From an uncultured Gammaproteobacteria bacterium (GTDB taxonomy: Bacteria > Patescibacteriota > Microgenomatia > UBA1406 > GWC2-37-13): a stretch of 64,000 bases of DNA. Below the pieces are notes generated by a model. It was not told the origin of the DNA and ran no database searches. It saw only the letters and a list, made by a program, of their open reading frames with translations. The stretch lies in NCBI GenBank assembly GCA_964452355.1, contig CAYVKV010000003.1, forward strand, positions 31,152 to 95,151, given 5' to 3'. The translations under genes were made by a program, and so were the position numbers. Below are positions 1,329-43,680 of the stretch, piece after piece (positions within the stretch are counted from its first letter, which is position 1; each line of letters opens with the position of its first letter).

Positions 1329-2753
1329 ATGAAACTCTACAACACGCTCACTCGTGAGAAAGATGAACTCCCCGAACCAATTTTACAAAAAATATTAACG
1401 ATGTATTCGTGTGGACCGACCGTATACGATGAAACTCACATTGGACACATGAGAAAGTTTACGATGGACGATGTATTAAAACGGTCATTGCGCTTTCTTG
1501 GATATGAAGTGACACATGTCATGAATATAACCGATGTCGGCCACCTCACCGGAGATGATGACAGTGGGGAGGACAAGCTTGAAAAAGGTGCAAAGAAACA
1601 CGGAAAGACGGTCTGGGATGTTGCAAAAGAATACGAGGAAAAATTTTGGGAGACCCTGAAAGCGCTTGGAATTGATCAGCACGATATCAAAGTGATGCAT
1701 GCGACCAAATGTATTCCGGATATGATCGCTTTGAATAAACGGCTGGAAGAGAAAGGTTTTACGTATCAGACGGATGAAGCGTTATATTTTGACGTAACAA
1801 AATTTCCCTCCTATGGAAAGCTTTCGGGACAAAAAATGGAGGACAAGAAACAAGCCGCTCGGTCAGAGGTAACTATTGATCCCGAAAAAAAACATCCTGC
1901 TGATTTTGCACTCTGGTTCAAACGGGTGGGGCGCTTTGCAGATCACACCATGCACTGGGAAAGCCCGTGGGGAGATGGATTTCCCGGCTGGCACATCGAA
2001 TGTTCGGCGATGGCTATGAAAGGACTAAACGCCGAAACCATCGATATTCATACCGGTGGCATTGATCATATCCCCGTCCATCATGAAAATGAGATCGCCC
2101 AGTCTGAAGCTGCGACGGGAAAACCGTTTGTAAAGTGGTGGGTACATCATGCATTTTTGCAGGTTGATGGGGAAAAAATGAGCAAATCAAAAGAAAATTT
2201 TTATACGCTTAAAGACATTCATGATCGAAATGTCGATCCGCTCACCTTGAAATATCTGTTTCTCCAAACGCATTACCGAAAACCGATGAACTTTACATGG
2301 GAAGCAGCACATGCTGCGGCAACGGCTTACGGACAACTGCAATCAATATATCAAGATCTAAAAAAGCAAGCCGCTGGGACAAAGATCACTCATGAACAGA
2401 ATCTTTCAGGTACTGCACAATTTATGCTCAATACGTTTAAGAAGGATATTTCTGACGACCTAAACACTGCTCGACTTCTTGGGAATGTTTGGTACATGCT
2501 TAAAGAAGAGCATTTGAAACCGGAGGATCAGCTCTTTTTACTTGATCAAGTGAATATGATTTTTGGATTTAATCTTGATGGTAAAAAGCAAAATGAGTCA
2601 ATACCCGTTGAAGTTCAGTCACTCGCAAAACAAAGACTCCAAGCACGTACTGACAAGAATTTTCAAAAATCAGATGATCTCCGGATGCAGATTGAAGATC
2701 ATGGATACACGATTGAGGATGCGGATGGTACGTACGTGATTAAGAAAAAATAA
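1329..2753 (+). CDS. cysS: Cysteine--tRNA ligase
   Basis: 474 aa. Class I signatures HIGHMR and KMSKSKENF; N-terminus MKLYNTLTREK...YSCGPTVYD is typical of CysRS. Confidence 0.95.
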   Translation: MKLYNTLTREKDELPEPILQKILTMYSCGPTVYDETHIGHMRKFTMDDVLKRSLRFLGYEVTHVMNITDVGHLTGDDDSGEDKLEKGAKKHGKTVWDVAKEYEEKFWETLKALGIDQHDIKVMHATKCIPDMIALNKRLEEKGFTYQTDEALYFDVTKFPSYGKLSGQKMEDKKQAARSEVTIDPEKKHPADFALWFKRVGRFADHTMHWESPWGDGFPGWHIECSAMAMKGLNAETIDIHTGGIDHIPVHHENEIAQSEAATGKPFVKWWVHHAFLQVDGEKMSKSKENFYTLKDIHDRNVDPLTLKYLFLQTHYRKPMNFTWEAAHAAATAYGQLQSIYQDLKKQAAGTKITHEQNLSGTAQFMLNTFKKDISDDLNTARLLGNVWYMLKEEHLKPEDQLFLLDQVNMIFGFNLDGKKQNESIPVEVQSLAKQRLQARTDKNFQKSDDLRMQIEDHGYTIEDADGTYVIKKK

Positions 2754-2760
2754 GTACCTT

Positions 2761-3984
2761 ATGTCTATCTATACCCCACAGGGTGCGAAAAAATACTTTC
2801 ACGTCATAAAACGTTTTCTTGCCATAAACTGGCTTTCTCTCTGGAATCCCACTCAACTTGCCATAACCGGCAGTCAGGGAAAAACGAATGTGACCCATAT
2901 GCTTTCCGGGATTCTTGCTCAATTTGGTTCTACTGTTTGCACCGATCTTACGCTTGATACAACCTTTAACGTACCCATTACCGCCCTGAAAGTACGCCCG
3001 TGGACAAAATTTTTAGTATGGGAGCTTGGAATCGATCATCCTGAGGAAATGGAAGATCATCTTGAGATCGCACGTCCAAATATCGCATGCGTGACTGGAA
3101 TCTCACCAGTGCACACGGACCAAGAGCACATGGGATCGCTTGATGTACTGATTCAAGAAAAAAGAAAACTTATTGAGGCGCTTCCCGAAAATGGTACTGC
3201 AGTGCTCAATCATGATGATGAGTTGGTACGAAAAATGGCTCCATATACAAAAGCGCACATCAAATGGTATGGGTCAACGAACGAATGTGATATTTCTGTT
3301 GATAAAAAATCAATCAAGGTGGCGCTTGTTGGAACATCTGCACATTTTTCTATAAACGGAAAAACTCAAAACATTAAAACCGGCTTGATAGGTGTCCATC
3401 ATATCGAGACGATCATGGCATCCTATCTTCTTGCGCAGTCGGCAATACAATCAGATATTCTTGATACTTTTTGCAAATCTGTTGCAACAACAATGCCCCT
3501 TCGGGGCAGGATGAGTGTGGAGAAGGGACCAATGAATACGATATTACTCAATGATTCATTAAGGGCTAACCCACAAAGTACGAATGCCGGTTTGAAAACA
3601 CTTGAAATGATTGAGCACTCAATAGGCAAAAAGATTGCAGTTATCGGTGAAATGGGGGAACTCGAACATCCCGAACAAGAACACAAAAAAACCGGAGAAC
3701 TTCTCGCAAAGCTCACTATTGATTTTGTGATCGGAATCGGACCCCTCAGAAAATACACCATAGACGAAGCAATAAAACAAGGTTTTCCCAAAGAAAAAAC
3801 AGCATATGCCCAAGATGTGTTTCAGGCGACAGAACTTCTCAAATCAACGCTCAAATCGGGTGATTTATGGTATCTCAAGGGGTCGCTTCTCAGAAACTAT
3901 AAACGAATCGTACAGCTTCTGAATAATGAGGAAGTTTGCTGCAGCCAAGTCATGTGTCCGTATGAACATTGTGGGTATAAATAA
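2761..3984 (+). CDS. murF: Mur ligase family, MurF-like (UDP-MurNAc-tripeptide--D-Ala-D-Ala ligase) with a short N-terminal domain
   Basis: P-loop ITGSQGKTNVTHML, ELGIDHPEEM, ISPVHTDQEHMGS, LLNDSLRANPQST and VIGEMGELEHPEQEH match MurF motifs. Only ~35 aa precede the P-loop. Confidence 0.7.
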   Translation: MSIYTPQGAKKYFHVIKRFLAINWLSLWNPTQLAITGSQGKTNVTHMLSGILAQFGSTVCTDLTLDTTFNVPITALKVRPWTKFLVWELGIDHPEEMEDHLEIARPNIACVTGISPVHTDQEHMGSLDVLIQEKRKLIEALPENGTAVLNHDDELVRKMAPYTKAHIKWYGSTNECDISVDKKSIKVALVGTSAHFSINGKTQNIKTGLIGVHHIETIMASYLLAQSAIQSDILDTFCKSVATTMPLRGRMSVEKGPMNTILLNDSLRANPQSTNAGLKTLEMIEHSIGKKIAVIGEMGELEHPEQEHKKTGELLAKLTIDFVIGIGPLRKYTIDEAIKQGFPKEKTAYAQDVFQATELLKSTLKSGDLWYLKGSLLRNYKRIVQLLNNEEVCCSQVMCPYEHCGYK

Positions 3985-7871: not shown

Positions 7872-7983
7872 AAAGCTTGATTTTCGCAATCGTACTTACT
7901 ATTATATGATCTGCGATCGTCAATTGTTAATCAATTTACCGCGTTTGTTACCAACAAATATAGTATACGCGAACCCATGACCT

Positions 7984-8262
7984 ATGAGCACATTTGAGTT
8001 TACATTCTTAGTGAATGACAAGAAATCCGTTACAAATCTTGAGGCAGTATTAAAATCGTATAACGGTAAAAAGATCAATGAAGAATCTCTGGGAAAAAGA
8101 CTTCTTGCGTACCCTATTGATAAAAATGAATCTGCCGAATATTTGGTTTGGCAAATTGAACTTGAAAAAAATGTGGTAAAGGATTTCAAACAAAAGCTCA
8201 ATTTTGATAAAGTCGTCATGAGATATCTCATGCTTTTAAAAGAGGACAAAAAAAAGAAATAA
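7984..8262 (+). CDS. rpsF: 30S ribosomal protein S6
   Basis: 92 aa. FEFTFLV...EESLGKRLLAYPIDKNESAEYLVWQIE is the S6 pattern. Classic rpsF-ssb-rpsR gene order. Confidence 0.9.
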   Translation: MSTFEFTFLVNDKKSVTNLEAVLKSYNGKKINEESLGKRLLAYPIDKNESAEYLVWQIELEKNVVKDFKQKLNFDKVVMRYLMLLKEDKKKK

Positions 8263-8286
8263 ACTATTAATTTGTACCGTTCATGT

Positions 8287-8778
8287 ATGTCAAGTAGGTC
8301 GATCAATAAAATTACGCTTCTTGGAAATCTCACCCGAGATCCGGAGCTTAAATATACGCCAACCGGTACTGCAGTATGTACTTTTGGCTTAGCAACAAAT
8401 CGATCATGGACCACGCAAGAAGGTAAGACACGCGAAGAAGCGCAGTATCATCGAATTGTTGCATGGCAAAAATTAGCTGAGCTTTGCAATAAACTGTTGT
8501 CAAAAGGTCGAAAAGCATATCTTGAAGGAAGAATCACCTATCGAGAATATGTCGATAAAAATGGTCAGCAAAGGAATATTACCGAGATTGTGCTTGACGA
8601 CTTTATTGTGTTTTACGACGGAAAACACGAAGACGAAAACACAGCACCCGCAGAAGAATCGGCACCAGTAACTCATGAAGAAGGTCATGACAATAAAAAA
8701 GAAGATACTACCAATGATCCGGTAGAAGCCAAAGAACAAAATGATGAAGACGTTAATCCTGATGATATTCCATTCTAA
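8287..8778 (+). CDS. ssb: Single-stranded DNA-binding protein
   Basis: OB fold INKITLLGNLTRDPELKYTPTGTAVCTFGLATNRSW, an acidic tail and a terminal DDIPF. The second in-frame ATG (8287) is preferred over 8272. Confidence 0.9.
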   Translation: MSSRSINKITLLGNLTRDPELKYTPTGTAVCTFGLATNRSWTTQEGKTREEAQYHRIVAWQKLAELCNKLLSKGRKAYLEGRITYREYVDKNGQQRNITEIVLDDFIVFYDGKHEDENTAPAEESAPVTHEEGHDNKKEDTTNDPVEAKEQNDEDVNPDDIPF

Positions 8779-8792
8779 ATTATTTAATACTT

Positions 8793-8996
8793 ATGAAATG
8801 TTTTTTTTGTAAATACAGTGTTGCTCCCGACTTCAAAGATATTGAAAATATCGAAAAATTTGTAACACCTCGAAAGAAAATTTTGAGTAGAGACAAAAGC
8901 AATGTATGTGCAAAGCATCAACGTGCACTCTCAAAACAGATAAAGCACGCACGGTATCTTGCCATACTTCCATACACTTCTTATCAAGGAGCCTAA
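8793..8996 (+). CDS. rpsR: 30S ribosomal protein S18
   Basis: 67 aa. CFFCK...FVTPRKKILSRDKSNVCAKHQRALSKQIKHARYLAILPYT is the S18 pattern. Confidence 0.9.
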   Translation: MKCFFCKYSVAPDFKDIENIEKFVTPRKKILSRDKSNVCAKHQRALSKQIKHARYLAILPYTSYQGA

Positions 8997-9106
8997 CCGA
9001 CAGGTTTCCTTATACCTTCGAAGAAGAAATCATGCTCCCTCTTAAGCTGAATAATATTCTCGCACGATGCAGAATATATTGGTACAATGAATGTCACTAT
9101 TGTTAG

Positions 9107-9835
9107 ATGTCGGAAGAAATTATGAAAATTAAAGCAAAAATTCCCGAAAAAGCAAAGATCGTGGTGAAACCCGGTCAAAAAGTTGACTTCACAACGCCCC
9201 TTGCAGAAACAGCAGAGAAACAAATGATCTATATTCCCATTGCAGAAATGATGGGTTTTGATTCCAAAAATATATTCCATTATCTCAAGCGGATGATCGG
9301 TGAACAGATTCAAAAGGGAGACGTCTTGGCTGAGATCAAATCGCTTTTCACCACGCGACAGTACTTAAGTGAGGTTTCAGGCATTCTTCGAGAAATCAAG
9401 CATGATACCGGCATCATCGCCATTGAACAGGAAATGAATAACAATCAGATGCTCAACTGTTTCTTTATTGGTGAAATCGCTGAAGTTTATGACGGTTATT
9501 TGGAACTGATCGTTGAAGACGTACACGCCGTAAAACTTCAAGAGGCAACACCGTATTTTGGAGCGTCAATGTACTATCTGAATCCATCAGGAAAATATAG
9601 CGATGCGGACCTTGAAGGCGCATGCGTATTTGCCCCGGAGTTTGATCCCATGGACACCGTCAAAATGGAGACGCTCGGAGCTCAAGGACTTATCACAAAA
9701 ACAAAAATCCCAATGAAAACCATGATTCATCAGATCGTTCTTCAAGATAAAGAGGATTTTGATCACATCCAAAAAAAAGAATATCCATACGTTCTCATTG
9801 GGCATGAGCCAATGACTATTTTATTTTATAAATAA
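9107..9835 (+). CDS. Hypothetical protein (two barrel-sandwich/lipoyl-like hairpin motifs)
   Basis: 242 aa ORF with no competing frame. Motifs VVKPGQKVDFTTPLAE and QIQKGDVLAEIKS resemble biotinyl/lipoyl-like hybrid motifs. Function unknown. Confidence 0.5.
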   Translation: MSEEIMKIKAKIPEKAKIVVKPGQKVDFTTPLAETAEKQMIYIPIAEMMGFDSKNIFHYLKRMIGEQIQKGDVLAEIKSLFTTRQYLSEVSGILREIKHDTGIIAIEQEMNNNQMLNCFFIGEIAEVYDGYLELIVEDVHAVKLQEATPYFGASMYYLNPSGKYSDADLEGACVFAPEFDPMDTVKMETLGAQGLITKTKIPMKTMIHQIVLQDKEDFDHIQKKEYPYVLIGHEPMTILFYK

Positions 9836-30083: not shown

Positions 30084-31337
30084 TTATGTTCCTTCTTGCC
30101 AGCTATTGAGGTATGTTTTCTGCTCTTGCGTCAATACGTCAATCTGAATTCCCCGACTTTTCAGTTTAAGTCGAGCAATTTCTGTATCAATTTTTGCAGG
30201 AAGCGCATACACTTTATACTCAAGTTTGCTTTTATTTTTCCAAATATACTCGGCAGCCAAAGCCTGTCCTGCAAAACTCGTATCCATGACTGAGGCAGGA
30301 TGTCCATCTGCAGCAGCAAGATTCACAAGTCGCCCCTCTCCAACAAGATAGAGAATCTTCTTTCCGGCAGAATACTCATCAACCATTGGTCTGACTCTTC
30401 GCACTTTTTGAGACATCTTTTCAAGAGACTTTATGTTGATTTCAACATCAAAATGTCCTGATTGTGCAAGAATGATACCATCTTTTGCAACCTTCAAATG
30501 CCGCTCGTCGATTACGTGTTTGTTTCCCGTGACAGATACTGCAAAATCAGCAATGCGAATTGCTTGAGACAGTGTCATCACCTGATACCCATCCATGACC
30601 GCTTCAAGCGCTTTGATTGGATCAATCTCACAAACGATAACCAATGCGCCCATACCTCGTGCCCTCATCGCAATTCCTCGACCACACCATCCATAGCCAC
30701 ATACGACAAACACACTTCCCGCTATGAGTTTATTTGTTGATCGCATAAGTGCATCAATCGTAGACTGTCCCGTCCCATATCGATTGTCAAAAAGATGTTT
30801 GGTAAGATTGTCGTTCACCGCTAACACAGGAATTTTTAACGCATTGTCTTTCTCCATTGCTTTCAGTCGAATAACACCCGTTGTTGTTTCCTCTGTTGAA
30901 CCAGTAACTTCACTTAATTGCTTCATTCGTTCTGAATGCAACATACTTACCAAATCTGCGCCATCATCCATCGTTTGATTTGGACGCACGTCAAGAACTT
31001 GATTTAAGTGTTGATAATACGTTTTATTATTCTCACCCTTGATCGCAAAAACAGGGATTTTATAATCTTTAACAAGTGACGCGGCAACCTCGTCATTGGT
31101 CGAAAGGGGATTACTCGCACACAGATACACATCGGCGCCACCTTCTTTCAAGGTAATCATAAGATTTGCTGTTTCTGAGGTAACATGAAGACAGGCTGAT
31201 AATTTTACCCCGTTAAGAGATTTATTTTTTTTAAAACGTTCTCGAATTTGCCTGAGAACTGGCATGTCTTTTTCCGCCCATTCAATGCGATTTTTCCCCG
31301 CAGCTGCAAGAGAGATATCTTTGATGTCGTATTTCAT
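30084..31337 (-). CDS. ahcY: Adenosylhomocysteinase
   Basis: 417 aa. [47 protein letters not shown] and [12 protein letters not shown] are AhcY motifs. Confidence 0.95.
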
Positions 31338-34237: not shown

Positions 34238-35059
34238 ATGCAAACTGTTTCGGTTATCGTTCCTACGCATAATTCGGGTAAAACTCTTACCCGATGTCTT
34301 AAATCAGTTCGATCTCAAACTTTTAAAAATATTGAACTCATTGTTGTTGATAATTTTTCTACAGACAACACCTTGAAGATTGCCAAACGCTTCGCAGACA
34401 AGGTCTTTTCGGTTCCTCCTGAAAGAAGTACCCAACGCAATTATGGAGTTAAAAAAAGTACCGGTGAATATATTATGTTTGCTGATTCAGACATGTACCT
34501 CAGTTCATCTGTTATACGGGAATGCGTGAGTGCCTTGAAAAAGGATATCATTGGAATATATATTCCTGAACAAATTCTTGGCGATTCTTTTTGGGCAGAG
34601 GTACGAAATTTTGAAAGAGGATTTTACAATAGTACCTGCGTCGATGCGATTCGTTTTTTGAGGAAAAAAGATTTTGAAAAAATGGGAGGATTTGACGAGC
34701 AGTTAAGAGTGGCAGAGGACTGGGATTTTGACCGGCGAATACGAAACTATGGAACGACCGCCGAAATTACTGCACATGTATTTCATGACGAATCGGCTTT
34801 TTCGATTGATACATATATTGGGAAGAAAAAATCCTATTTTGATGATCTTCAAATATATCAACAAAAATGGAACGGGCATCCTGAAGTAAATAAACAACTA
34901 GGTTTTATGTACCGAATGATAGGGGTATTTATTGAGAATAATAAATGGAAACGATTGCTGCGGCAGCCAATTTTATCTATGGCAATGATAGTACTTCGAA
35001 CGATGGTTGGTTTTGAGTATCTTATTTCAAAAATCGTATTAAGAAAAGTTACATCATAA
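34238..35059 (+). CDS. Glycosyltransferase family 2
   Basis: VSVIVPTHNSGKTLTRCLKSVRSQTFKNIELIVVDNFSTD and FADSDM are GT-A/GT2 motifs. Confidence 0.88.
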   Translation: MQTVSVIVPTHNSGKTLTRCLKSVRSQTFKNIELIVVDNFSTDNTLKIAKRFADKVFSVPPERSTQRNYGVKKSTGEYIMFADSDMYLSSSVIRECVSALKKDIIGIYIPEQILGDSFWAEVRNFERGFYNSTCVDAIRFLRKKDFEKMGGFDEQLRVAEDWDFDRRIRNYGTTAEITAHVFHDESAFSIDTYIGKKKSYFDDLQIYQQKWNGHPEVNKQLGFMYRMIGVFIENNKWKRLLRQPILSMAMIVLRTMVGFEYLISKIVLRKVTS

Positions 35060-35067
35060 CTTCAACT

Positions 35068-35787
35068 ATGCAAAATAATACAAATCCCCTCAGTTCAACG
35101 TGGAATATTCAATGGCGAAATTATAATAAAGCTCCTTTTTTCAAGCCAAATCATAAAGTTATTCAGGAGATTGTTCGCTGTTTTGATGGAAATGTAAAGA
35201 ATAAGAAAATACTCGAAATCGGTGCCGGTTCCGGTTGTGACGTTCTTTGTTTGTCCAAAATGGGAGCTTACGGATATGCGTTGGATTTCTCTTCCGAATC
35301 AATCAAAACAATGCGATACTGGTCGAAGAAAACAAAAACGAATATCAGTATCAAGCAGGCAGATATTAGAAACTTACCTTATGAAAAGTCACTATTTGAT
35401 ATGATTTATTCGGTAGGACTTATGGAACATTTCGAAAACCCCCTTCCGTTACTGGAAAAGCAATTATCTTCAATAAAAAAGGGAGGATTTCTTCTCATTG
35501 ATCTTCCACAGAAATATTCGTTATACACTATTGCAAAACACGTTCGAATGAGATTGGGTACCCATCCATTTGGCTGGGAAACAGAATATTCCTTGGGAGA
35601 ATTGAGAAAAATGTCTGAAAAATTAAACACAAAGATCGTCAGATGGTATGGAAGAGATCTGGATATTATTCAAAAAATCCCCCTCAGCATTAGACCATAT
35701 GTTGATTCCGTATACAAGAAAACTATTGAAAACACGTGGATTTCTCCCTATATCGGCCTTTCCATTGGAATCATCTTGCAAAAATAA
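35068..35787 (+). CDS. Class I SAM-dependent methyltransferase
   Basis: Motif I ILEIGAGSGCDVLCL, YALDFS, FDMIYSVGLMEHF and KKGGFLLI. Confidence 0.8.
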   Translation: MQNNTNPLSSTWNIQWRNYNKAPFFKPNHKVIQEIVRCFDGNVKNKKILEIGAGSGCDVLCLSKMGAYGYALDFSSESIKTMRYWSKKTKTNISIKQADIRNLPYEKSLFDMIYSVGLMEHFENPLPLLEKQLSSIKKGGFLLIDLPQKYSLYTIAKHVRMRLGTHPFGWETEYSLGELRKMSEKLNTKIVRWYGRDLDIIQKIPLSIRPYVDSVYKKTIENTWISPYIGLSIGIILQK

Positions 35788-35808
35788 TCAGCATTTTTGA
35801 GAATATCC

Positions 35809-36837
35809 ATGAAAAATCAATCAACAAAAAAACAGAAAACAATCTCACTCATTGTCGTAAACTACAATGGTCGAGAACATTTGGATGAATATTTTACCTC
35901 TGTTTTTTCACAAACAAGAGTTCCTGACGAAGTGATCATGTTTGACAACTTGTGCACCGATGGCAGTCGAGCATTTGTAGGAAAAAAATTCCCAACCGTC
36001 AAAATCATCACCGAGGATCGATTTAACACCGGAACAGCACGCGCATACAACACAGCCTTTCAAAAATCTTCAGGAAATTTTGTTGTTTTACAGTCAAATG
36101 ATATTGTTTTGGATTCTAAGTGTATTGAAACCTTATATAAGAAAATAAGCAGTGATGATTCAATAGGCATCGTCTCGAGCATTACAATACGGTATCCCAA
36201 TAAAAAATTGCGAAAATTTATCGTAGATCAAGCGGGGGGACAGATGGATATATATGGATTTGGCATGCAGAACTATCCGCAAGTGCCGGTAATTGATATC
36301 CCTGATGCCGGAGAAGTTTTTTTTGCATATGGTGATTCGATCATTATGAGAAGGGAGGCTTTTCAAAAAGTAAACGGACTTGATGAACGAATGTTTATGC
36401 TTCATGACGATATAGATTTATCCTGGCGCATGAGACTGCTTGGCTACAAAATCATGTATACAAAACATTCCTTTGTATATCACAAGGGAAGTGCAACGAT
36501 TGGATCAAATTACAAACGTCCACAGATACGATTTTTGAGTGAACGAAATGGAATGAGATGCTATTTAAAAAATACTTCATATGCTCATTTCTTCAAAACC
36601 TTTCCCATGTATATGATACTCTTATGCGGAGAAATGGGATATTTTTTATTCCGAGGAAAATTTCAATTATTTTTTGCAGATGTACGAGCCATACTTTGGA
36701 ATCTGTACTATCTTCCCGAAACACTCCTCCTGAAAATTCAAATTCAGTCTCATGCAAAAATGGATAATACAAACAAACTTTTCCACCACAAAAGCTTCAA
36801 ACTCATGCTCTTCAAAAATTTTAGCAAATCACTTTGA
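35809..36837 (+). CDS. Glycosyltransferase family 2 (rhamnosyltransferase-like)
   Basis: ISLIVVNYNGREHLDEYFTSVFSQT...MFDNLCTDGS and a later HDDIDLSWR. ATG at 35809 is preferred over the TTG at 35797. Confidence 0.85.
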   Translation: MKNQSTKKQKTISLIVVNYNGREHLDEYFTSVFSQTRVPDEVIMFDNLCTDGSRAFVGKKFPTVKIITEDRFNTGTARAYNTAFQKSSGNFVVLQSNDIVLDSKCIETLYKKISSDDSIGIVSSITIRYPNKKLRKFIVDQAGGQMDIYGFGMQNYPQVPVIDIPDAGEVFFAYGDSIIMRREAFQKVNGLDERMFMLHDDIDLSWRMRLLGYKIMYTKHSFVYHKGSATIGSNYKRPQIRFLSERNGMRCYLKNTSYAHFFKTFPMYMILLCGEMGYFLFRGKFQLFFADVRAILWNLYYLPETLLLKIQIQSHAKMDNTNKLFHHKSFKLMLFKNFSKSL

Positions 36838-36887: not shown

Positions 36888-38675
36888 ATGAAAGTTTCAG
36901 ATTACATCGTTTCCTATCTTGAATCAATCAAAGTTACGACCGTGTTTGGTATAACCGGATCGGTGATCGCCGATATTCTCGACTCCTTCCACGGTAAGAA
37001 AAAAATTCATCTTTATCATCCTATTCACGAACAAACGGCTGCAATGTCAGCACATGCATACACCATGGCCAGTGGAAAAATCGGTGTCGCAATCTCTACA
37101 TCCGGCCCGGGAGCCACGAATCTTTTGACCGGTCTCACGTGTGCATGGTATGACTCGATTCCCGCACTCTATATCAGTGGTCAAGTAAATAGCAACTTCA
37201 CCAGGGGCAAAAAGGCAGTCCGCCAGATTGGATTTCAAGAAACTGACGTGGTCGGCATCGTCAAATGTGTTACAAAATATACGACGATGGTGACCGATCC
37301 TTCCCTGATTCGGTATGAACTTGAAAAGGCAGTTCACCTTGCCACTACTGGACGGCCAGGTCCGGTACTTCTTGATATTCCCATCGATGTACAAAGAGCC
37401 GATATCGACCCGTCAAAATTAAAACGGTTTATTCCAGAAATACAATCGAAAACAAAAAATAGTACATTAATACAAGAAAAAATAAAAGAATATATCACTG
37501 ATCTAAAAAAAGCCAAACATCCTGTGGCGCTTGTTGGTGGGGGAGTAACACACGCAAACGCGATCAAAGAGGCAGAATCACTCTTTCACTATCTGAAGGT
37601 TCCGACGGTACTGACATGGGTCGGCATCGATACGCTCCCCAAGGCGCACCCACTCTATCGTGGACGGATTGGTACCTATGGCCAACGAGGAGCAAATTTT
37701 ACCATTCAAAATGCAGATCTATTACTATCTCTCGGGTCTCGTCATGATGGAAGACAGACCGGCGGTCGACTTGATAGCTTTGCCCGAGAAGCAAAGAGAT
37801 ATATTGTTGATGTTGACGAAGGAGAACTCAAGGATCAGCCAATTCATGGTCATGTCAATATTCATGCAGATCTGAAGGAGTTTATTCCACTCCTTACTCA
37901 GAAAATTCAATCAGAAAACATTCCTTCGTTTACTCATTGGCTCAAAGAGACAAAAGAGTGGCAATTGGAGTTCCCAACGGTTCTCCCCAATTATGAAAAG
38001 CCAAATCGAAGAGTAAACACCTATTCGTTTATGAAAAAACTATCCCATATTTTGGAAGTGGGGGATATTATCGTTGGAGATTGCGGCGGGAATATCGTAC
38101 CGCTTGCACAGGCTTTTGAGGTCAAGAAACATCAAAAGCTCATCACGTCTTGGTCTCATAGCCCGATGGGATATGCATTTGCGGCAAGCATAGGAGCGTA
38201 CCTTGGGAAAAGTAAAGAGACAAAACATGTCGTTTGTACCATTGGAGATGGGGGTATGCAAGTGAATATTCAAGAACTTCAGACGTATAAGATGTACAAC
38301 ATTCCGGTAAAAGTTTTTGTACTCAACAATCAGTCATACGGAATTATCATGCAGTACCAAGACACCTATCTGAACTCGCGATATGTTGGCGCAGCTCCAA
38401 AATGGGGATATACCTACCCGGATTTCAGAAAAGTAGCTGAGGCATTTGGTATCAAGACTGAACTCATACGTACAAATGGAGAAGTTGAGTCAAAGATCAA
38501 AAAAGTACTTGCAATGAAAGGACCCGTGATATGTGAGGTCAATCTTGAGAAAAAAACAGTCCTCGAACCGAGACTCGGATGGAATGCCGGTATTGAAGAT
38601 CAGTTTCCAAAAATTGATCAGGATGTTTTGAAGCGTCACTTGTACGTAAAACAGTTTAACCCTGATAAGAAGTAG
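36888..38675 (+). CDS. Thiamine-diphosphate-dependent enzyme, acetolactate-synthase-large-subunit-like (YerE-like context)
   Basis: 595 aa. GPGATNLLTGLTCAWYDSIPALYISGQV, and the C-terminal TPP motif GDGGMQVNIQELQT...VLNNQSYG. Confidence 0.85.
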   Translation: MKVSDYIVSYLESIKVTTVFGITGSVIADILDSFHGKKKIHLYHPIHEQTAAMSAHAYTMASGKIGVAISTSGPGATNLLTGLTCAWYDSIPALYISGQVNSNFTRGKKAVRQIGFQETDVVGIVKCVTKYTTMVTDPSLIRYELEKAVHLATTGRPGPVLLDIPIDVQRADIDPSKLKRFIPEIQSKTKNSTLIQEKIKEYITDLKKAKHPVALVGGGVTHANAIKEAESLFHYLKVPTVLTWVGIDTLPKAHPLYRGRIGTYGQRGANFTIQNADLLLSLGSRHDGRQTGGRLDSFAREAKRYIVDVDEGELKDQPIHGHVNIHADLKEFIPLLTQKIQSENIPSFTHWLKETKEWQLEFPTVLPNYEKPNRRVNTYSFMKKLSHILEVGDIIVGDCGGNIVPLAQAFEVKKHQKLITSWSHSPMGYAFAASIGAYLGKSKETKHVVCTIGDGGMQVNIQELQTYKMYNIPVKVFVLNNQSYGIIMQYQDTYLNSRYVGAAPKWGYTYPDFRKVAEAFGIKTELIRTNGEVESKIKKVLAMKGPVICEVNLEKKTVLEPRLGWNAGIEDQFPKIDQDVLKRHLYVKQFNPDKK

Positions 38676-38676
38676 T

Positions 38677-39717
38677 ATGAACTCCACCATTACCCATGAT
38701 ATCGAACAGATTGTCGATCGATTAGATCTCAGTCCATTGAAAGGAAAGAGCGTTCTTCTTACCGGCTCAAATGGTTTTCTTGGAAGATACATCGCGATGG
38801 TCGTTTCGATGTTGAATCAAAAATATGATTATGGAACCACGTTGTACTGTTGGAGCCTCCACGCGCCAAATGATGATATAAAAAACCTTGCAAAAAATGA
38901 CCCAAACATCATCCCTCAATCCGTAAATCTTTCAAAACCAATTACCTTTACAAAAGAAGTTGATTTCATTCTTCATGCGGCAGGTTATGCGCAGCCAAAA
39001 AAATTTATTGAGAATATATTTGAAACCATTGAGCTAAATATTCACGCAACTCACTCCCTTCTCGAAATTGCAAAAAAGAATAATGCCCGTTTCTTATTTT
39101 TCAGTTCCGCAGAGGTGTATGGCGATATTCCAAAAAATCTTATTTCCGTATCTGAGAAATACAACGGTTGTATCGACACCTCAAATATTAGATCAATGTA
39201 TGCTGAATCGAAACGTCTTGGCGAGACTATCTGCTCAATGTACCGACAAAATGAAGACGTAAATGCATTTGTCGCACGTATTTCTCATGTATACGGACCG
39301 GGTATCTCAACAACTGACAAAAGGGTGATTGGAGAATGTATACGAAAAGCATTTGAAGAAAAAGTCATAACTCTTGAGGATCAGGGCACCGCAATAAAAA
39401 CGTGGGGATATATCGCAGATATCATACAAATGATTCTCAATATACTCACTCATGGAACTGAATTGATATATAACGTAGGAGGTATTGATACCATGAGCAT
39501 CAAAGAATTAGCTGAAGAAATCGGTCGCCAAACAAATGCGGATGTGGTCACTCCTCAATCAAATGGAAAAAAAGACAATAGCATACATGATCCTCAATTT
39601 GTAAAATTGAATATCACAAAATATTCGAAAGAATTCGGCGATCCAACATTTATATCATTTTCAGAAGGGATACGACGAACAATAGAATGGAATAGAAACA
39701 TTAGTCAACTCGTATGA
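38677..39717 (+). CDS. Extended SDR NAD-dependent nucleotide-sugar epimerase/dehydratase/reductase
   Basis: Rossmann fold LLTGSNGFLGRYI, SSAEVYG and catalytic YAESK. The start is 1 nt after the TPP-enzyme stop. Confidence 0.8.
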   Translation: MNSTITHDIEQIVDRLDLSPLKGKSVLLTGSNGFLGRYIAMVVSMLNQKYDYGTTLYCWSLHAPNDDIKNLAKNDPNIIPQSVNLSKPITFTKEVDFILHAAGYAQPKKFIENIFETIELNIHATHSLLEIAKKNNARFLFFSSAEVYGDIPKNLISVSEKYNGCIDTSNIRSMYAESKRLGETICSMYRQNEDVNAFVARISHVYGPGISTTDKRVIGECIRKAFEEKVITLEDQGTAIKTWGYIADIIQMILNILTHGTELIYNVGGIDTMSIKELAEEIGRQTNADVVTPQSNGKKDNSIHDPQFVKLNITKYSKEFGDPTFISFSEGIRRTIEWNRNISQLV

Positions 39718-40910
39718 ATAAAGACAGATTATTTTGGAAACTCCAAGACAACATTCTTGATACAGAAAATAAACAAACCCTCATCAAATTCATAAAATCT
39801 ACCGATCGCTTTACTCAGTTTGAGGAGGTGAAAAAATTTGAAAGAGAATGGTCGACATGGCAAGGGAGAAGGCATAGTGTTTTTGTAAATTCAGGGAGTT
39901 CTGCAATCCTGGTCATTATTTCTGCACTGAAAGAATATTACAAATGGGGTAAAGGCGCTGAAATAATGGTACCCGCGGTAACATGGATTACTGATATTTC
40001 AGTACTTCTTCAGCTTGATTTAAAACCGGTATTTGTCGATGTGAATCTTGAAGATTTTTCATTTGATTATGAAGATTTAGCATCAAAGATTACTTCAAAA
40101 ACAAAAGCGATATTTCTCACTCATCTCATTGGGTTTCCAGCAGATATTAATAAAGTGAAGCAAATGATTGGTAAGAAAAAAATCCATCTCATTGAAGATT
40201 GCTGTGAATCACATGGAGCAAAAATTTCAAATACAAAAGTCGGCAATCACGGATTGGTAAGTTTGTTTAGTTTTTACTGGGGTCACCATATTACGACTGT
40301 TGAGGGTGGAATGATCTGCACCGATAATAAAAAACTATATCATCTCTTTCTGCTCAAACGCTCTCACGGCCTGGCTCGGGAACTTCCCAAAAAACTGCAT
40401 CAATATTACAAAAACAAACACAAAGACATTGATTTTAATTTTCTCTTTCTTACCAATGGGTTCAATGTTCGAAATACAGAACTCAATGCAGTACTGGGAA
40501 GTTCACAATTAAAAAAACTGGATAAATACATTGAACATAGGAATAAAGTACATGAAAAATTCCTGAAAATTATCAGTCATTATCCGGAATATTTATTTGC
40601 ACCCTACAAAGACGGTATCTCCTCATTCTCACTGCCATTCATCATGAAGAAACAATATATCAAAAATCGACTCCAAAAGTTTCTGACAAAAAATGGCGTA
40701 GAAACGCGACCTATTATTGGAGGAAATTTACTTCGCCAACCATTTTTAAAAGCTGAATTTAAAAATAAAGGTTTTCCCAATGCAGATTTTCTTCATAAGA
40801 ATGCATTTTATATTGGAAATAATCAATTCGTGGATTCTCAGAAACTCAACCGACTCAAAGAACTACTGGATATATTTTTTACCAATCCAAAAAATATCAC
40901 CCATGAATAA
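39714..40910 (+). CDS. DegT/DnrJ/EryC1/StrS-family PLP/PMP enzyme with His in place of the Schiff-base Lys (nucleotide-sugar 3-dehydratase, ColD/E1-like)
   Basis: 398 aa. SFYWGHHITTVEGG (40269-40310) aligns with SFHxxKxITxxEGG of family aminotransferases, with K replaced by H191. ATGA-type overlap with the SDR gene. Confidence 0.7.
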   Translation: MNKDRLFWKLQDNILDTENKQTLIKFIKSTDRFTQFEEVKKFEREWSTWQGRRHSVFVNSGSSAILVIISALKEYYKWGKGAEIMVPAVTWITDISVLLQLDLKPVFVDVNLEDFSFDYEDLASKITSKTKAIFLTHLIGFPADINKVKQMIGKKKIHLIEDCCESHGAKISNTKVGNHGLVSLFSFYWGHHITTVEGGMICTDNKKLYHLFLLKRSHGLARELPKKLHQYYKNKHKDIDFNFLFLTNGFNVRNTELNAVLGSSQLKKLDKYIEHRNKVHEKFLKIISHYPEYLFAPYKDGISSFSLPFIMKKQYIKNRLQKFLTKNGVETRPIIGGNLLRQPFLKAEFKNKGFPNADFLHKNAFYIGNNQFVDSQKLNRLKELLDIFFTNPKNITHE

Positions 40911-41835
40911 ATCATCAAAAATATACATTGCCGGACATACGGGACTTATCGGAAGCGCCCTTGTTCGCAAATACACCCGAGAAGGATACCCGAATATTCT
41001 GACCAAAACTCATCACGAACTTGATTTAACCGACAACACAAAAGTCAATCAATTTTTTTTAAAGAAGCAGCCTGATTATGTGATTTTGGCTGCAGCAAAA
41101 GTTGGGGGAATACAAGCAAATATTGCGCGTCCTGCACGTTTTTTGATTGAAAATATGCTCATTCAAAATAATGTCATTCTGTCAGCCCTTGAATATGGGG
41201 TAAAAAAGTTGTTATTTATCTCCTGTGGATGTGCATACCCGACACAATCTCCGCAACCGATAAAAGAAGAGTACCTCCTGTCGGGGAAGCTTGAACAAAC
41301 AAATGAAGGTTTTGCGATTGCAAAAATTGCAGGAATGAAACTCTGTGAAAAAATCAACCTTGAATATAAGAAAGAGTTTCTTACATGCATCGCAGCAAAT
41401 ACCTACGGAGAACATGACCATTTTGATGAAGAAAGATCGCACGTCATATCGGCCCTCATAAAGAAGTTTCATCAGGCAAAAGTCGAAAATCTATCTAATG
41501 TAACAATCTGGGGAACGGGAACGGCTCAGCGAGAATTTATCTACGTTGATGATCTTGCTGATGGTTTGCATCTTCTTATGGAGGAATATTCCAGTTCCGA
41601 ACCGATTAATATCGGCAGTGGTCAAGAATTCACTATCAAAAAATTGAGTGAAATTATTCAAAGAGTAGTAAAATATGAAGGAAAAGTCACATTTGATTCC
41701 TCAAAACCTGACGGGATGAAACGAAGAATATTTGATAGTAATAAAATCATGGATCTTGGATTTAAGCCACAAATATCATTTGAAGAAGGAATAAAACGAG
41801 CGTATCAGTTTTATTGCGTGTCATCCCGCACTTGA
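40903..41835 (+). CDS. GDP-L-fucose synthase family (Fcl / GDP-L-colitose synthase ColC-like 3,5-epimerase-4-reductase)
   Basis: KIYIAGHTGLIGSALVRKY and ELDLTDNTKVNQFFLKKQPDYVILAAAKVGGIQAN match Fcl closely. ATG at 40903 overlaps the upstream stop by 8 nt. The track start 40780 is rejected. Confidence 0.85.
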   Translation: MNKSSKIYIAGHTGLIGSALVRKYTREGYPNILTKTHHELDLTDNTKVNQFFLKKQPDYVILAAAKVGGIQANIARPARFLIENMLIQNNVILSALEYGVKKLLFISCGCAYPTQSPQPIKEEYLLSGKLEQTNEGFAIAKIAGMKLCEKINLEYKKEFLTCIAANTYGEHDHFDEERSHVISALIKKFHQAKVENLSNVTIWGTGTAQREFIYVDDLADGLHLLMEEYSSSEPINIGSGQEFTIKKLSEIIQRVVKYEGKVTFDSSKPDGMKRRIFDSNKIMDLGFKPQISFEEGIKRAYQFYCVSSRT

Positions 41836-41868: not shown

Positions 41869-42411
41869 ATGAGCATTTTTTCAAAATTAATTTGTTATTT
41901 ACTGAGGATTCCCGCACAACTCAAGGGAATGCGGTTTGGAAAAAATAGTTTTATCGGCCCAGGGTATGATTTTCTCTTTTTAAATCTGAGAAATGTAGAA
42001 GTCAAAAACAATGTTATGATCGGGTCTCGGGCATGGTTTCAGACCGTTGACTCTGGAAAAATAACGATTGGATCGGGGACACATATCGGACGAGATGCTG
42101 TTCTTTCTGCACGGGATGAAATAACAATCGGTGAAAATTGTTTACTGTCATATCGTGTGTCCATTCTTGACCACGATCATAAACTTGATCGTTCAATAAA
42201 ATCTCCTATGAGGAGCGGTCTCACGAAAGGACAAAAAGTGACAATTGGCAATAACTGCTTTATCGGAGCAAATGTTTGTATTATAAAAGGAGTTACTCTT
42301 GGAAATCATTGTGTCGTTGGTGCAAATAGCGTCGTGACAAAATCCTATCCGGCATTTTCAATGTTGGGTGGAAATCCTGCAAAACGTATTAAAAAACTTC
42401 CCTTAAAATAA
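41869..42411 (+). CDS. Left-handed beta-helix (hexapeptide repeat) O-acetyltransferase
   Basis: Hexapeptide repeats IGNNCFIGANVCIIKGVTLGNHCVVGANSVV. About 180 aa, like WbbJ/MAT-type sugar acetyltransferases. Confidence 0.85.
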   Translation: MSIFSKLICYLLRIPAQLKGMRFGKNSFIGPGYDFLFLNLRNVEVKNNVMIGSRAWFQTVDSGKITIGSGTHIGRDAVLSARDEITIGENCLLSYRVSILDHDHKLDRSIKSPMRSGLTKGQKVTIGNNCFIGANVCIIKGVTLGNHCVVGANSVVTKSYPAFSMLGGNPAKRIKKLPLK

Positions 42412-43680
42412 TTACACAATCTTCAAATAGGGGATCGTAATGATAAACTGCCCACCACGTTCTCGATATTCTTTATTTTTTTCGATAATCTCTTTGGCAA
42501 AATTCCACGACATGAGAAGTGCATAGTCGGGAGTATCTGTTTTTAATTTAGTTTCTGAATAAATGGGAATATGAGTTCCCGGTGTATATTTTCCTTGTTT
42601 ATAGGGAGTTGAGTCGACAATATAATCGAGAATGTCTGTTGAAATATTGCAATAATTAGTAAGGACATTACCTTTTGCAGAAGCGCCATACCCAATGATT
42701 GATCGATTCTCCTTTTTTATTCGTTTTAAGAAATGAAGTAAATCCCGTTTGATCACTTTGACTCTCCGTGCAAACTCATCATAGGTGGATCTTACATGTA
42801 ATTTTTTGAGATTTTCCTCTGCGACAAATTTTCCAACCCGTGGGTGGATTGAATACGAACCATCAACATGAGCAGCAAAAATACGTACCGTCCCACCATG
42901 AATACTTTGTTTTTTGATATCAACAATTTTGAGTTTATATTTTTCAAATAACTTCATGAGTGGTCGAATGGAAATGTAGCTCAGATGTTCATGATAGATT
43001 GTGTCAAATTCATTATTGTCCAATAAATCAATGAGATATGGCGCCTCAATCACAAATAAACCTTTTGAATGAAGGAGTATTTTTACTCCCTTCATGACGC
43101 TGTGAAGATCATCAATATGCGCAAAAACATTCGTTGCGGTGATCGCTTTAGCAGTGCCAAATTTTTGGTAAACTTTTTGGGCCGTTTTTTCATTGAAATA
43201 ATCGGCTATTGTTGCGATGCCACGGGCGTTTGTGTCTTTGGCAATATTTTCTGCAGGATCAATACCGAGAACGTTCAGTTTTTTCTTTTTGAAAAATGAC
43301 AAGAGTGTCCCGTCATTACTTCCAATATCAATAACCAGTTCATTTTTGAGGGGGTTTATCGCGGCGATCACATCGGTTGCTAATTTTTGAAAATGTTCAA
43401 CCATTGTTTTGGATGCTGAAGGAATATAGAGATAATTCTTAAACATAATTTCTGCGGGTATTGTATGCGTAAGTTGCACAAGCCAACATGATTCACATAC
43501 GCAGATTTTCAAAGGGTAATGGAGTTCTTGCTTTTTCAGATCTTTCTTCCCAAGAAACCCATTGGGTATCGGCATAGATCCGAGAGAGAGGAAGGAATAT
43601 AGTTTTGAAGACCCACACATCCGACAGGTGGTGCGTCGATATTCGCTTGCAGAAACCTTCTTTTTTTGGCGCTTTCTCAT
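42412..43680 (-). CDS. NDP-hexose C-methyltransferase family (TylC3/EvaC-like: Zn-ribbon + class I MT + C-terminal domain)
   Basis: 422 aa. CRMCGSSKL...PLKICVCESCWLVQL...FKNYLYIPSASKTMVEHF, then VIDIGSNDGTLL. Its stop codon abuts the acetyltransferase stop with 0 nt between them. Confidence 0.75.
   Translation of the reverse strand: MRKRQKKKVSASEYRRTTCRMCGSSKLYSFLSLGSMPIPNGFLGKKDLKKQELHYPLKICVCESCWLVQLTHTIPAEIMFKNYLYIPSASKTMVEHFQKLATDVIAAINPLKNELVIDIGSNDGTLLSFFKKKKLNVLGIDPAENIAKDTNARGIATIADYFNEKTAQKVYQKFGTAKAITATNVFAHIDDLHSVMKGVKILLHSKGLFVIEAPYLIDLLDNNEFDTIYHEHLSYISIRPLMKLFEKYKLKIVDIKKQSIHGGTVRIFAAHVDGSYSIHPRVGKFVAEENLKKLHVRSTYDEFARRVKVIKRDLLHFLKRIKKENRSIIGYGASAKGNVLTNYCNISTDILDYIVDSTPYKQGKYTPGTHIPIYSETKLKTDTPDYALLMSWNFAKEIIEKNKEYRERGGQFIITIPYLKIV

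Follow-up and report, generated by a model that had tools for sequence, protein, structure and literature searches.

The 64,000-nucleotide stretch of DNA analysed here (the window; positions 31,152 to 95,151 of contig CAYVKV010000003.1, assembly GCA_964452355.1) carries a gene for a ColD-like dehydratase and, directly after it, a gene for a protein resembling the GDP-L-fucose synthase Fcl (hereafter the Fcl-like protein). The original prediction had read this pair as a module for a 3,6-dideoxyhexose of colitose type. We found that this pair closes a module of four translationally coupled genes, the first two of which encode a thiamine diphosphate (ThDP)-dependent enzyme and a 346-residue short-chain dehydrogenase/reductase (SDR), and that the Fcl-like protein lacks two residues of the catalytic triad of its family. 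The coupling of a 3-dehydratase homologue to an Fcl-family gene was confirmed, but the ThDP enzyme and the SDR point to branching at C-4 over simple reduction. We consider it probable that the module specifies a GDP-linked route to a C-4-branched, yersiniose-like 3,6-dideoxyhexose, in which the Fcl-like protein serves mainly as an epimerase. What follows rests on direct observation as regards the residues, the way the genes are coupled, the clades and the associations between genes; from these we infer all substrates, the order of the steps, the product and all functions.

The coupled genes and the ColD-like dehydratase

The stop codon of the ThDP enzyme gene (TAG, 38673-38675) lies one base ahead of the SDR start codon (ATG at 38677), and the SDR stop codon (TGA, 39715-39717) overlaps the start of the dehydratase gene by 4 nt (ATGA at 39714-39717). 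As had been predicted, the dehydratase gene overlaps the next gene by 8 nt, with its TAA at 40908-40910 and the ATG of the Fcl-like protein at 40903. This start, ATGAATAA, is supported by homologues with the same N-terminus, MNKSSKIY. The coupled string thus runs from the ThDP enzyme through the SDR and the dehydratase to the Fcl-like protein, and reaches upstream of the originally noted pair.

The dehydratase contains a DegT/DnrJ/EryC1 domain of the aspartate-aminotransferase-like fold (PF01041, 231.3 bits, residues 17-368). Its top solved relative was ColD (WbdK) of Escherichia coli O55, a GDP-4-keto-6-deoxy-D-mannose 3-dehydratase (PDB 2gms, 3b8x, 2r0t and 3gr9), with an E-value of 5e-68 and 233 bits for 2gms, versus 120 bits for the E1 structure 3bcx. 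The phmmer alignment to the ColD structures was free of gaps near His191 and placed the Gly-His-His of the motif SFYWGHHITTVEGG, encoded at 40269-40310, on S187-H188-H189 of ColD. Since the deposited ColD mutants (3b8x, 'SNH'; 2r0t, 'SKH'; 3gr9, 'NKH'; that is, H188N, H188K and S187N/H188K) mark the first histidine as position 188, the catalytic histidine could be identified, and it is the residue to which His191 is aligned. The claim that a histidine occupies the site of the internal-aldimine lysine of sugar aminotransferases was thereby borne out. When 80 proteins of the DegT family, taken from related loci, were aligned with MAFFT, the Schiff-base column held His in 69 dehydratase-like proteins and Lys in 11 aminotransferase-like ones, indicating that His191 is a family trait and not a chance substitution.

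Nucleotide-sugar 3-dehydratases combine the aminotransferase fold with a histidine in place of the catalytic lysine; E1 and SpnQ add four [2Fe-2S] cysteines, which ColD does without (PMC8987622). Three of the four Fe-S cysteines of E1/RfbH were absent from the window protein: Cys249, Cys251 and Cys262 of E1 correspond to Arg, Leu and a gap, and they are likewise missing from ColD and from all members of the clade to which the window protein belongs. An E1/RfbH identity was ruled out by these absences and by the score against the NCBIfam RfbH model (210.3 bits, cut-off 423). The histidine alone had originally been taken to indicate either a ColD or an E1 type; judged by its sequence, the protein is an Fe-S-free homologue of the ColD-type, pyridoxamine phosphate (PMP)-dependent 3-dehydratases, and with no Fe-S cysteines it would need no E3 reductase.

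It is, however, no orthologue of the characterised ColD proteins. A tree of the His-type proteins resolved four groups: clade A, comprising the window protein and those of 53 loci from many phyla, with an invariant FSFYWGHH; its sister clade B, from bacteria of the Candidate Phyla Radiation (CPR), with a VGHH motif; the canonical ColD clade, with [YF]SHH; and E1/RfbH, with PAHH. The window protein stands outside the clade of characterised ColD, has Gly for Ser187 in its WGHH, and is 37% identical to ColD of the comparison pair, colC-colD of E. coli O55:H7, and 31% identical to the RfbH of its own genome. Apart from the DegT fold, the histidine and the missing Fe-S cysteines, it shares with ColD the local motif RxHG..R.LPKK, and a GDP-mannose-derived substrate is likely for it too.

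Two observations concern the clades themselves. In locus L067, from a Vicinamibacterales bin, a canonical-type ColD (FFSHH) occurs together with a clade-A dehydratase (YWGHH), at 2107-3291 and 7893-9188, which argues against functional redundancy of the two types. Clade-B genes, found in other Patescibacteria genomes (L104-L106 and L112-L115), occur in two contexts, namely compact gmd-dehydratase-fcl operons of colitose-like appearance, in which Fcl has an intact triad, and a position next to an alpha/beta pair of pyruvate dehydrogenase E1 (PDH-E1) type and an SDR (L115).

The Fcl-like protein

The Fcl-like protein, the sole Fcl homologue in the genome, has the extended SDR fold (PF01370, 194 bits) with conserved GHTGLIGS and AAKVGG motifs. 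Its sequence identity is 43% with E. coli Fcl and 39% with ColC of E. coli O55, and it scored 282 bits against the E. coli Fcl structures and 388.9 bits against NF047922, below the cut-off of 500. In an alignment to the Fcl structures that was free of gaps around the active site, Ser107 and Tyr136 of E. coli Fcl were matched by Cys108 and Phe137, so that the residues at the positions of the Ser/Thr-Tyr-Lys triad, on which C-4 reduction by Fcl and ColC is thought to depend, are Cys108, Phe137 and Lys141. The lysine (Lys140 in E. coli numbering) and the epimerisation pair Cys109 and His179 are retained.

Both replacements are traits of a clade. S107C and Y136F occurred in all 9 copies of the gene from the loci and in 55 of the 120 nearest protein-database clusters (one of the 55 has Leu instead of Phe), and every full-length database match at least 58% identical to the Fcl-like protein belonged to this Cys/Phe clade. 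About six positions that are at least 90% conserved elsewhere in Fcl are changed in the clade, two of them being the triad residues; the other changes of the clade (G106S, S108G, I110A, T164A, L166T, N172H and W295F) ring the active site. The clade retains both cofactor motifs, GxxGxxG and AAKVGG, and its Cys109/His179 pair is invariant. In all 12 cases of known context the gene directly follows that of the dehydratase, at a spacing of -14 to +1 nt once over-called ORF (open reading frame) starts are set aside, and a ThDP enzyme lies within 8 kb in 10 of the 12. In one further case, L034, a pair of YerE-like and SDR genes lies elsewhere on the same contig.

In an IQ-TREE phylogeny the Cys/Phe clade and the canonical ColC proteins, defined by their position next to a characterised-type colD, each formed a clade with 100/100 support on an unresolved Fcl backbone (a polytomy), the Fcl-like protein thus lying outside the canonical ColC clade. 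Its nearest neighbour, with 83/83 support, was a CPR Fcl from a gmd-dehydratase-fcl operon. An approximately unbiased (AU) test on a quick tree did not reject a sister relation of the Cys/Phe clade and ColC (p = 0.77). The original description of a close Fcl look-alike comparable to ColC therefore held as to the family, but not as to ColC, from which both the tree and the replaced Ser and Tyr separate the protein. Homologues 45-50% identical to it in 200 genomes of the phylum occurred both with and without a dehydratase, so overall similarity cannot assign a function.

In human GDP-L-fucose synthase (GFS) the tyrosine is the proton donor of the C-4 reduction (PMC12362431). Its Y143F variant retains about 3% of the activity, with reduction rate-limiting and epimerisation little affected, and earlier work cited in the same paper found that the two epimerisations need no NADPH (PMC12362431). 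For WbmF of Bordetella, an SDR whose triad is incomplete but which has a conserved epimerase cysteine, a function as an epimerase without redox activity has been proposed (PMC2279256). Like WbmF, the Fcl-like protein keeps the epimerase cysteine and a basic partner after part of the Ser/Tyr/Lys triad has gone; unlike it, WbmF lacks the Ser/Thr only, belongs to a UDP-sugar pathway and has a function that is likewise just predicted (PMC2279256). These comparisons suggest that the Fcl-like protein is an epimerase whose reductive half-reaction is disabled or strongly weakened. A reduction-disabled enzyme is also what a pathway with ThDP-dependent addition would require, because such an addition needs the C-4 ketone.

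Public names of clusters in the Cys/Phe clade (P0006, P0014, P0015, P0033, P0045 and others) are 'GDP-L-fucose synthase' or 'GDP-fucose synthetase'. Every listed member with a specific name carries one of this kind. With both Ser and Tyr missing, the name 'GDP-L-fucose synthase' is doubtful, and probably wrong, for this clade.

The ThDP enzyme, the gene neighbourhood and the probable nucleotide carrier

The ThDP enzyme has the three domains PF02776, PF00205 and PF02775. Its top solved relatives were 8rph (352 bits) and 5ahk (307 bits), the latter of which we take to be YerE of Pseudomonas protegens, with structures of acetohydroxyacid synthase (AHAS) at no more than 266 bits. The entry 8rph is JanthE, a YerE-like enzyme (PMC12188165), and a review records structures of both PpYerE and JanthE (PMC12247030). 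YerE transfers a pyruvate-derived acetyl unit onto the C-4 ketone of CDP-4-keto-3,6-dideoxyglucose, after which YerF reduces the side chain (PMC12247030, PMC9306805). The gene belongs to a sugar cluster, where its neighbours encode a predicted 3-dehydratase and a predicted reductase, and it is separate from the ilv genes. True large and small AHAS subunits are encoded in an ilv/leu operon on contig C2, the large subunit being 33% identical to the window enzyme, which identifies the latter as a paralogue with another job; the possibility that it is the AHAS of the cell was thereby ruled out. The operon (C2:167573-179089), in a Roizmanbacteria-like genome of 1.24 Mb, looks complete and contains, besides the AHAS genes, ilvC (337 bits) and ilvD-, leuA- and leuBCD-like ORFs. 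We interpret the window enzyme, on its sequence and setting, as a YerE-like carboligase that would add an acyl unit to a 4-keto sugar. A scan with a profile of this enzyme returned 80 loci of very mixed context, useful solely for counting His-type DegT partners: a DegT gene was present in 38, and it was of the His type in 36 of these, which fits a general reliance of YerE-like carboligases on a 3-dehydratase.

The 346-residue SDR matched PF01370 but no specific NCBIfam model, and its top solved relatives, UDP-glucuronate decarboxylases, reached just 98 bits. Its translation contains GxxGxxG and YxxxK motifs. The family is found beside YerE-like genes also in loci of the CDP/E1 type, and its conserved adjacency to ThDP enzymes is the basis on which we propose it to be a YerF-like side-chain reductase.

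The neighbourhood was analysed by clustering all ORFs of 54 loci found with the window dehydratase, giving 55 sets with the window itself. The loci were gathered by similarity to window proteins and not as a random sample; a simple script served for ORF calling, single-linkage clustering defined the families, and the names attached to metagenome bins may be in error. The commonest neighbours were the window-type SDR (42 of 55 sets, mostly adjoining the ThDP enzyme) and an Fcl homologue (32 of 55). A ThDP enzyme lay within 8 kb in 42 of the 54 clade-A sets (window included), and the typical gene order was ThDP enzyme, SDR, Fcl homologue where present, and dehydratase. Searches with Pfam and NCBIfam distinguished four ThDP architectures: a YerE-like single chain, a split transketolase, a PDH-E1 alpha/beta pair and a shortened alpha/beta pair. 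As a control, 14 loci found with E. coli ColD all had gmd and a ColC-type gene beside colD, and none had a ThDP enzyme (42/54 versus 0/14, Fisher p = 8e-8). The window dehydratase does not share this gmd-colC-colD context, its neighbours being the ThDP enzyme and the SDR, with gmd on another contig. In E. coli O55, moreover, colC precedes colD with a 4-nt overlap, whereas in the window the order is reversed, with the dehydratase gene first.

Split-gene transketolases (Transketolase_N plus Transket_pyr/C) stood beside a ColD-like dehydratase in 17 of the first 54 loci. The loci of this kind are L033, L036, L038, L042, L045-L047, L051, L052, L059, L064, L069, L071-L073, L077, L081, L196 and L197, and their hosts are CPR bacteria, Verrucomicrobiota, Omnitrophota, Bacteroidota and one archaeon. 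A 2025 review lists just 13 putative ketone-accepting split transketolases, all from Streptomycetes (PMC12247030).

These associations bear on the reading closest to the original one, a plain GDP-L-colitose module. The dehydratase would then form GDP-4-keto-3,6-dideoxymannose, the Fcl-like protein would act as ColC by C-5 epimerisation and C-4 reduction, and the ThDP enzyme and SDR would serve another sugar. The 8-nt coupling of the last two genes suits a joint role, gmd is present in the genome, and sister clade B occurs in operons that look like colitose modules. The Fcl-like protein keeps its cofactor motifs, Lys140 and the Cys/His pair; the human Y143F enzyme still forms product at about 3% of the wild-type rate; and the AU test tolerates a common clade with ColC. 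Nevertheless, Ser107 and Tyr136 are both replaced in 55 of 55 members of the Cys/Phe clade, the canonical ColC clade excludes the Fcl-like protein with 100/100 support, the coupled string extends without a break from the ThDP enzyme gene over the SDR gene to that of the dehydratase, and ThDP enzymes accompany this dehydratase clade in 42 of 54 loci but canonical colD in none of 14. We therefore regard a plain colitose module as unlikely.

The genome is a 29-contig bin estimated to be 96.8% complete with 0.12% contamination. The original prediction, having seen no genes of the GDP-mannose or CDP-glucose pathways nearby, had left the nucleotide carrier open; a genome search located both kinds. 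A solitary gmd lies on contig C13 (415.7 bits, barely over the cut-off), a manC-like guanylyltransferase gene on C2 (244 bits to the N-terminal part of a bifunctional model) and a manB-like, phosphomannomutase-like gene on C20. A CDP-type set lies 38 kb downstream on the same contig as the module (C3:108961-112690, about 13.8-17.5 kb past the end of the window). It consists of an RfbF-like gene (273.8 bits, cut-off 300.25), an SDR gene, RmlC (181 bits, cut-off 155.75) and RfbH. The last is a 436-residue protein of the classical Fe-S type (539.7 bits, cut-off 423) with ESFYPAHH and CWCG...C motifs. No protein in the genome scored above the cut-off for CDP-glucose 4,6-dehydratase. A GDP-heptose precursor of the Campylobacter 3,6-dideoxyheptose type is unlikely here and was rejected, because this genome has no gmhA; the sole match was one of 26 bits inside a 593-residue ORF.

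Of 49 genomes with a clade-A dehydratase, 45 had a Gmd homologue, compared with 70 of 201 sampled genomes of the phylum (Fisher p = 1e-13; p = 9e-6 in the small-genome subset). The only nucleotide-specific neighbours in the 54 clade-A loci were Gmd (9-10 loci) and a Nudix protein resembling the GDP-mannose mannosyl hydrolase Gmm (7-10 loci), and these loci contained no sugar-1-phosphate nucleotidyltransferase, RfbF, RmlA or E1-type dehydratase. GDP is thus the best-supported carrier, although this is not proven. In the same sample of 201 Patescibacteria genomes an Fcl-family homologue occurred in just 17, compared with the 70 that have a Gmd homologue, so most must spend GDP-4-keto-6-deoxymannose on something besides fucose.

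The CDP-type set suggests a second alternative, with two independent pathways encoded next to each other. In one, RfbF and RfbH would provide CDP-4-keto-3,6-dideoxyglucose, which the YerE-like enzyme and the SDR would turn into classical CDP-yersiniose; in the other, the ColD-like dehydratase and the Fcl-like protein would make a separate GDP-sugar. Every characterised YerE-type enzyme uses a CDP-sugar made by E1 (PMC12247030, PMC9306805), YerE-like genes adjoin E1 and RfbF genes in other genomes, and here RfbH above its cut-off, the RfbF-like protein below its own and RmlC share the contig of the module. However, none of the 54 clade-A loci contains an RfbF, RmlA or E1-type gene, yet 42 have a ThDP enzyme; the CDP-glucose 4,6-dehydratase is missing above cut-off; and the gene to which that of the ThDP enzyme is linked by coupling is the ColD-like one rather than rfbH. 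We find this arrangement improbable.

The proposed pathway and its relation to known systems

The pathway that we favour, a GDP-linked route to a C-4-branched 3,6-dideoxyhexose, would draw its precursor from the ManB-like, ManC-like and Gmd proteins, whose genes lie on other contigs, with Gmd converting GDP-mannose to GDP-4-keto-6-deoxymannose. The dehydratase, with PMP and His191, would expel the 3-hydroxyl group. As it has no Fe-S cluster, release of GDP-4-keto-3,6-dideoxymannose would follow the hydrolytic route of ColD, and glutamate would regenerate PMP. The Fcl-like protein would epimerise C-5 with little or no reduction at C-4, so that the ketone survives; the YerE-like enzyme would add a pyruvate-derived acetyl unit to C-4; and the 346-residue SDR would reduce the side-chain ketone to a 1-hydroxyethyl group, as YerF does.

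A different role for the Fcl-like protein, not as an epimerase but as an enzyme acting after branching, for example on the side-chain ketone, in a pocket made roomier by S108G, I110A and T164A to take the C-4 branch, and with the SDR doing something else, would agree with the retained cofactor motifs and with the clustering of mostly smaller side chains at the active site, but is highly improbable, since the protein has neither Tyr nor Ser for protonating an alkoxide, strictly conserves an epimerase dyad that a side-chain reductase would not need, and is accompanied by an SDR with an intact YxxxK that is the one tracking ThDP enzymes across loci.

Several observations weigh against the favoured pathway itself. 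No ThDP gene was found within 8 kb in 12 of the 54 clade-A loci. Several of these are truncated contigs, and L034, as described above, has its YerE-like and SDR pair farther away; L032, however, is a complete chromosome with the dehydratase and a Cys/Phe-type Fcl gene. Some 20 clade-A loci outside the group of the window have an embedded Fcl homologue with an intact triad upstream of the dehydratase, and an intact reductase should compete with branching; possibly the hosts produce colitose alongside a branched sugar, or else the model is incomplete. The gmd gene lies on another contig of a metagenome-assembled genome, all characterised YerE-type enzymes act on CDP-sugars, and the YerE-like enzyme could in reality be supplied by the genuine RfbH, which lies with RfbF at a distance of 38 kb. 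Certain atypical SDRs carry out reductions although they lack the tyrosine. Moreover, GFS with Phe for Tyr still reduces slowly, and the Fcl-like protein may thus make a colitose-type sugar.

A more specific version goes further, and we offer it only tentatively, as a possibility somewhat short of an even chance. The Fcl-like protein may be a reductase-disabled descendant of GDP-fucose synthase, working as a stand-alone 5-epimerase on a GDP-4-keto-3,6-dideoxyhexose and passing an L-configured ketone to the ThDP carboligase. The product would be a GDP-linked L-series C-4 acyl-branched 3,6-dideoxyhexose, and the 'FYWGHH' dehydratases would be dedicated, E3-independent ketone suppliers for ThDP-dependent branching in many phyla. 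We know of no description of this sugar class or of a 5-epimerase role derived from Fcl.

The features of the module and its surroundings are listed in Table 1. Downstream of the four genes, the O-acetyltransferase gene keeps its position in loci L029 and L030, and the convergent C-methyltransferase gene is kept in L029-L031. The latter protein scored 344 bits to the D-mycarose 3-C-methyltransferase 4rv9 and has the Zn-ribbon, S-adenosylmethionine-binding and C-terminal domains (PF08421, PF13489 and PF08484) of the TylC3/TcaB9 type. Both enzymes may decorate the branched sugar or a sister sugar, with C-methylation alpha to the ketone being possible, and the flanking enzymes of glycosyltransferase family 2 (GT2) would transfer the sugar as the last step. 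The stop codons of the two downstream genes abut with zero intergenic bases (window 42409-42414), leaving no space for a terminator between them.

Table 1. Features of the coupled module and its flanks (window coordinates)
Feature	Coordinates	Strand	Basis
YerE-like ThDP-dependent carboligase (predicted), 595 aa, acetolactate-synthase fold	36888..38675	+	TPP_enzyme_N/M/C domains
Extended SDR, 346 aa, proposed YerF-like reductase of the acyl side chain	38677..39717	+	PF01370
ColD-like PMP-dependent nucleotide-sugar 3-dehydratase (by sequence), 398 aa, 'FYWGHH' clade	39714..40910	+	PF01041
His191 codon CAC, Schiff-base-lysine column (ColD His188)	40284..40286	+	phmmer and MAFFT alignments
Fcl-like protein, Fcl-family SDR without catalytic Ser and Tyr, 310 aa, proposed GDP-4-keto-sugar epimerase	40903..41835	+	NF047922 and alignments
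Cys108 codon TGT, replaces Ser107 of E. coli Fcl	41224..41226	+	Alignment to Fcl structures
Phe137 codon TTT, replaces catalytic Tyr136 of E. coli Fcl	41311..41313	+	Alignment to Fcl structures
Hexapeptide-repeat O-acetyltransferase, 180 aa, ends the co-oriented string	41869..42411	+	Hexapep domains; top NCBIfam match WbbJ-like
TylC3/TcaB9-type NDP-hexose C-methyltransferase, 422 aa, convergent	42412..43680	-	Methyltransf_13 and Methyltransf_14 domains
GT2, methyltransferase and GT2 genes upstream, co-oriented; context of sugar transfer and decoration	34238..36837	+	Domain matches

Besides ColD, Fcl/ColC and WbmF, the closest known systems include the yersiniose A pathway of Yersinia pseudotuberculosis (DdhA-D with E1/E3, YerE and YerF), together with its relatives for erwiniose and caryophyllose, whose shared logic is 3-deoxygenation of an NDP-4-keto-6-deoxyhexose, ThDP-dependent acyl addition at its C-4 ketone and side-chain reduction. 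The module, which has a YerE-like enzyme and an adjoining reductase, probably works in the same way, differing in a ColD-type dehydratase of a separate clade that is free of Fe-S and independent of E3, in an added Fcl-derived enzyme that departs from the triad of Fcl and ColC, and in the probable use of GDP rather than CDP as the carrier, with mannose rather than glucose as the probable starting sugar.

To our knowledge, acyl-branched 3,6-dideoxy sugars such as yersiniose, erwiniose and caryophyllose are known solely from CDP-glucose by way of Fe-S E1 and E3. The window operon hints at another route of a simpler kind, as do some 40 related loci whose hosts include CPR bacteria, Verrucomicrobiota, Omnitrophota and Acidobacteriota; this route would start at GDP-mannose, use an Fe-S-free dehydratase and employ four kinds of ThDP enzyme. 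ThDP enzymes are of interest as biocatalysts for tertiary alcohols (PMC12247030). The Fcl-like protein would in turn offer a testable natural experiment, in which an epimerase/reductase has turned into an epimerase. For the biology of the CPR, the operon indicates that an elaborate surface glycan may be made from a 1.2-Mb genome.

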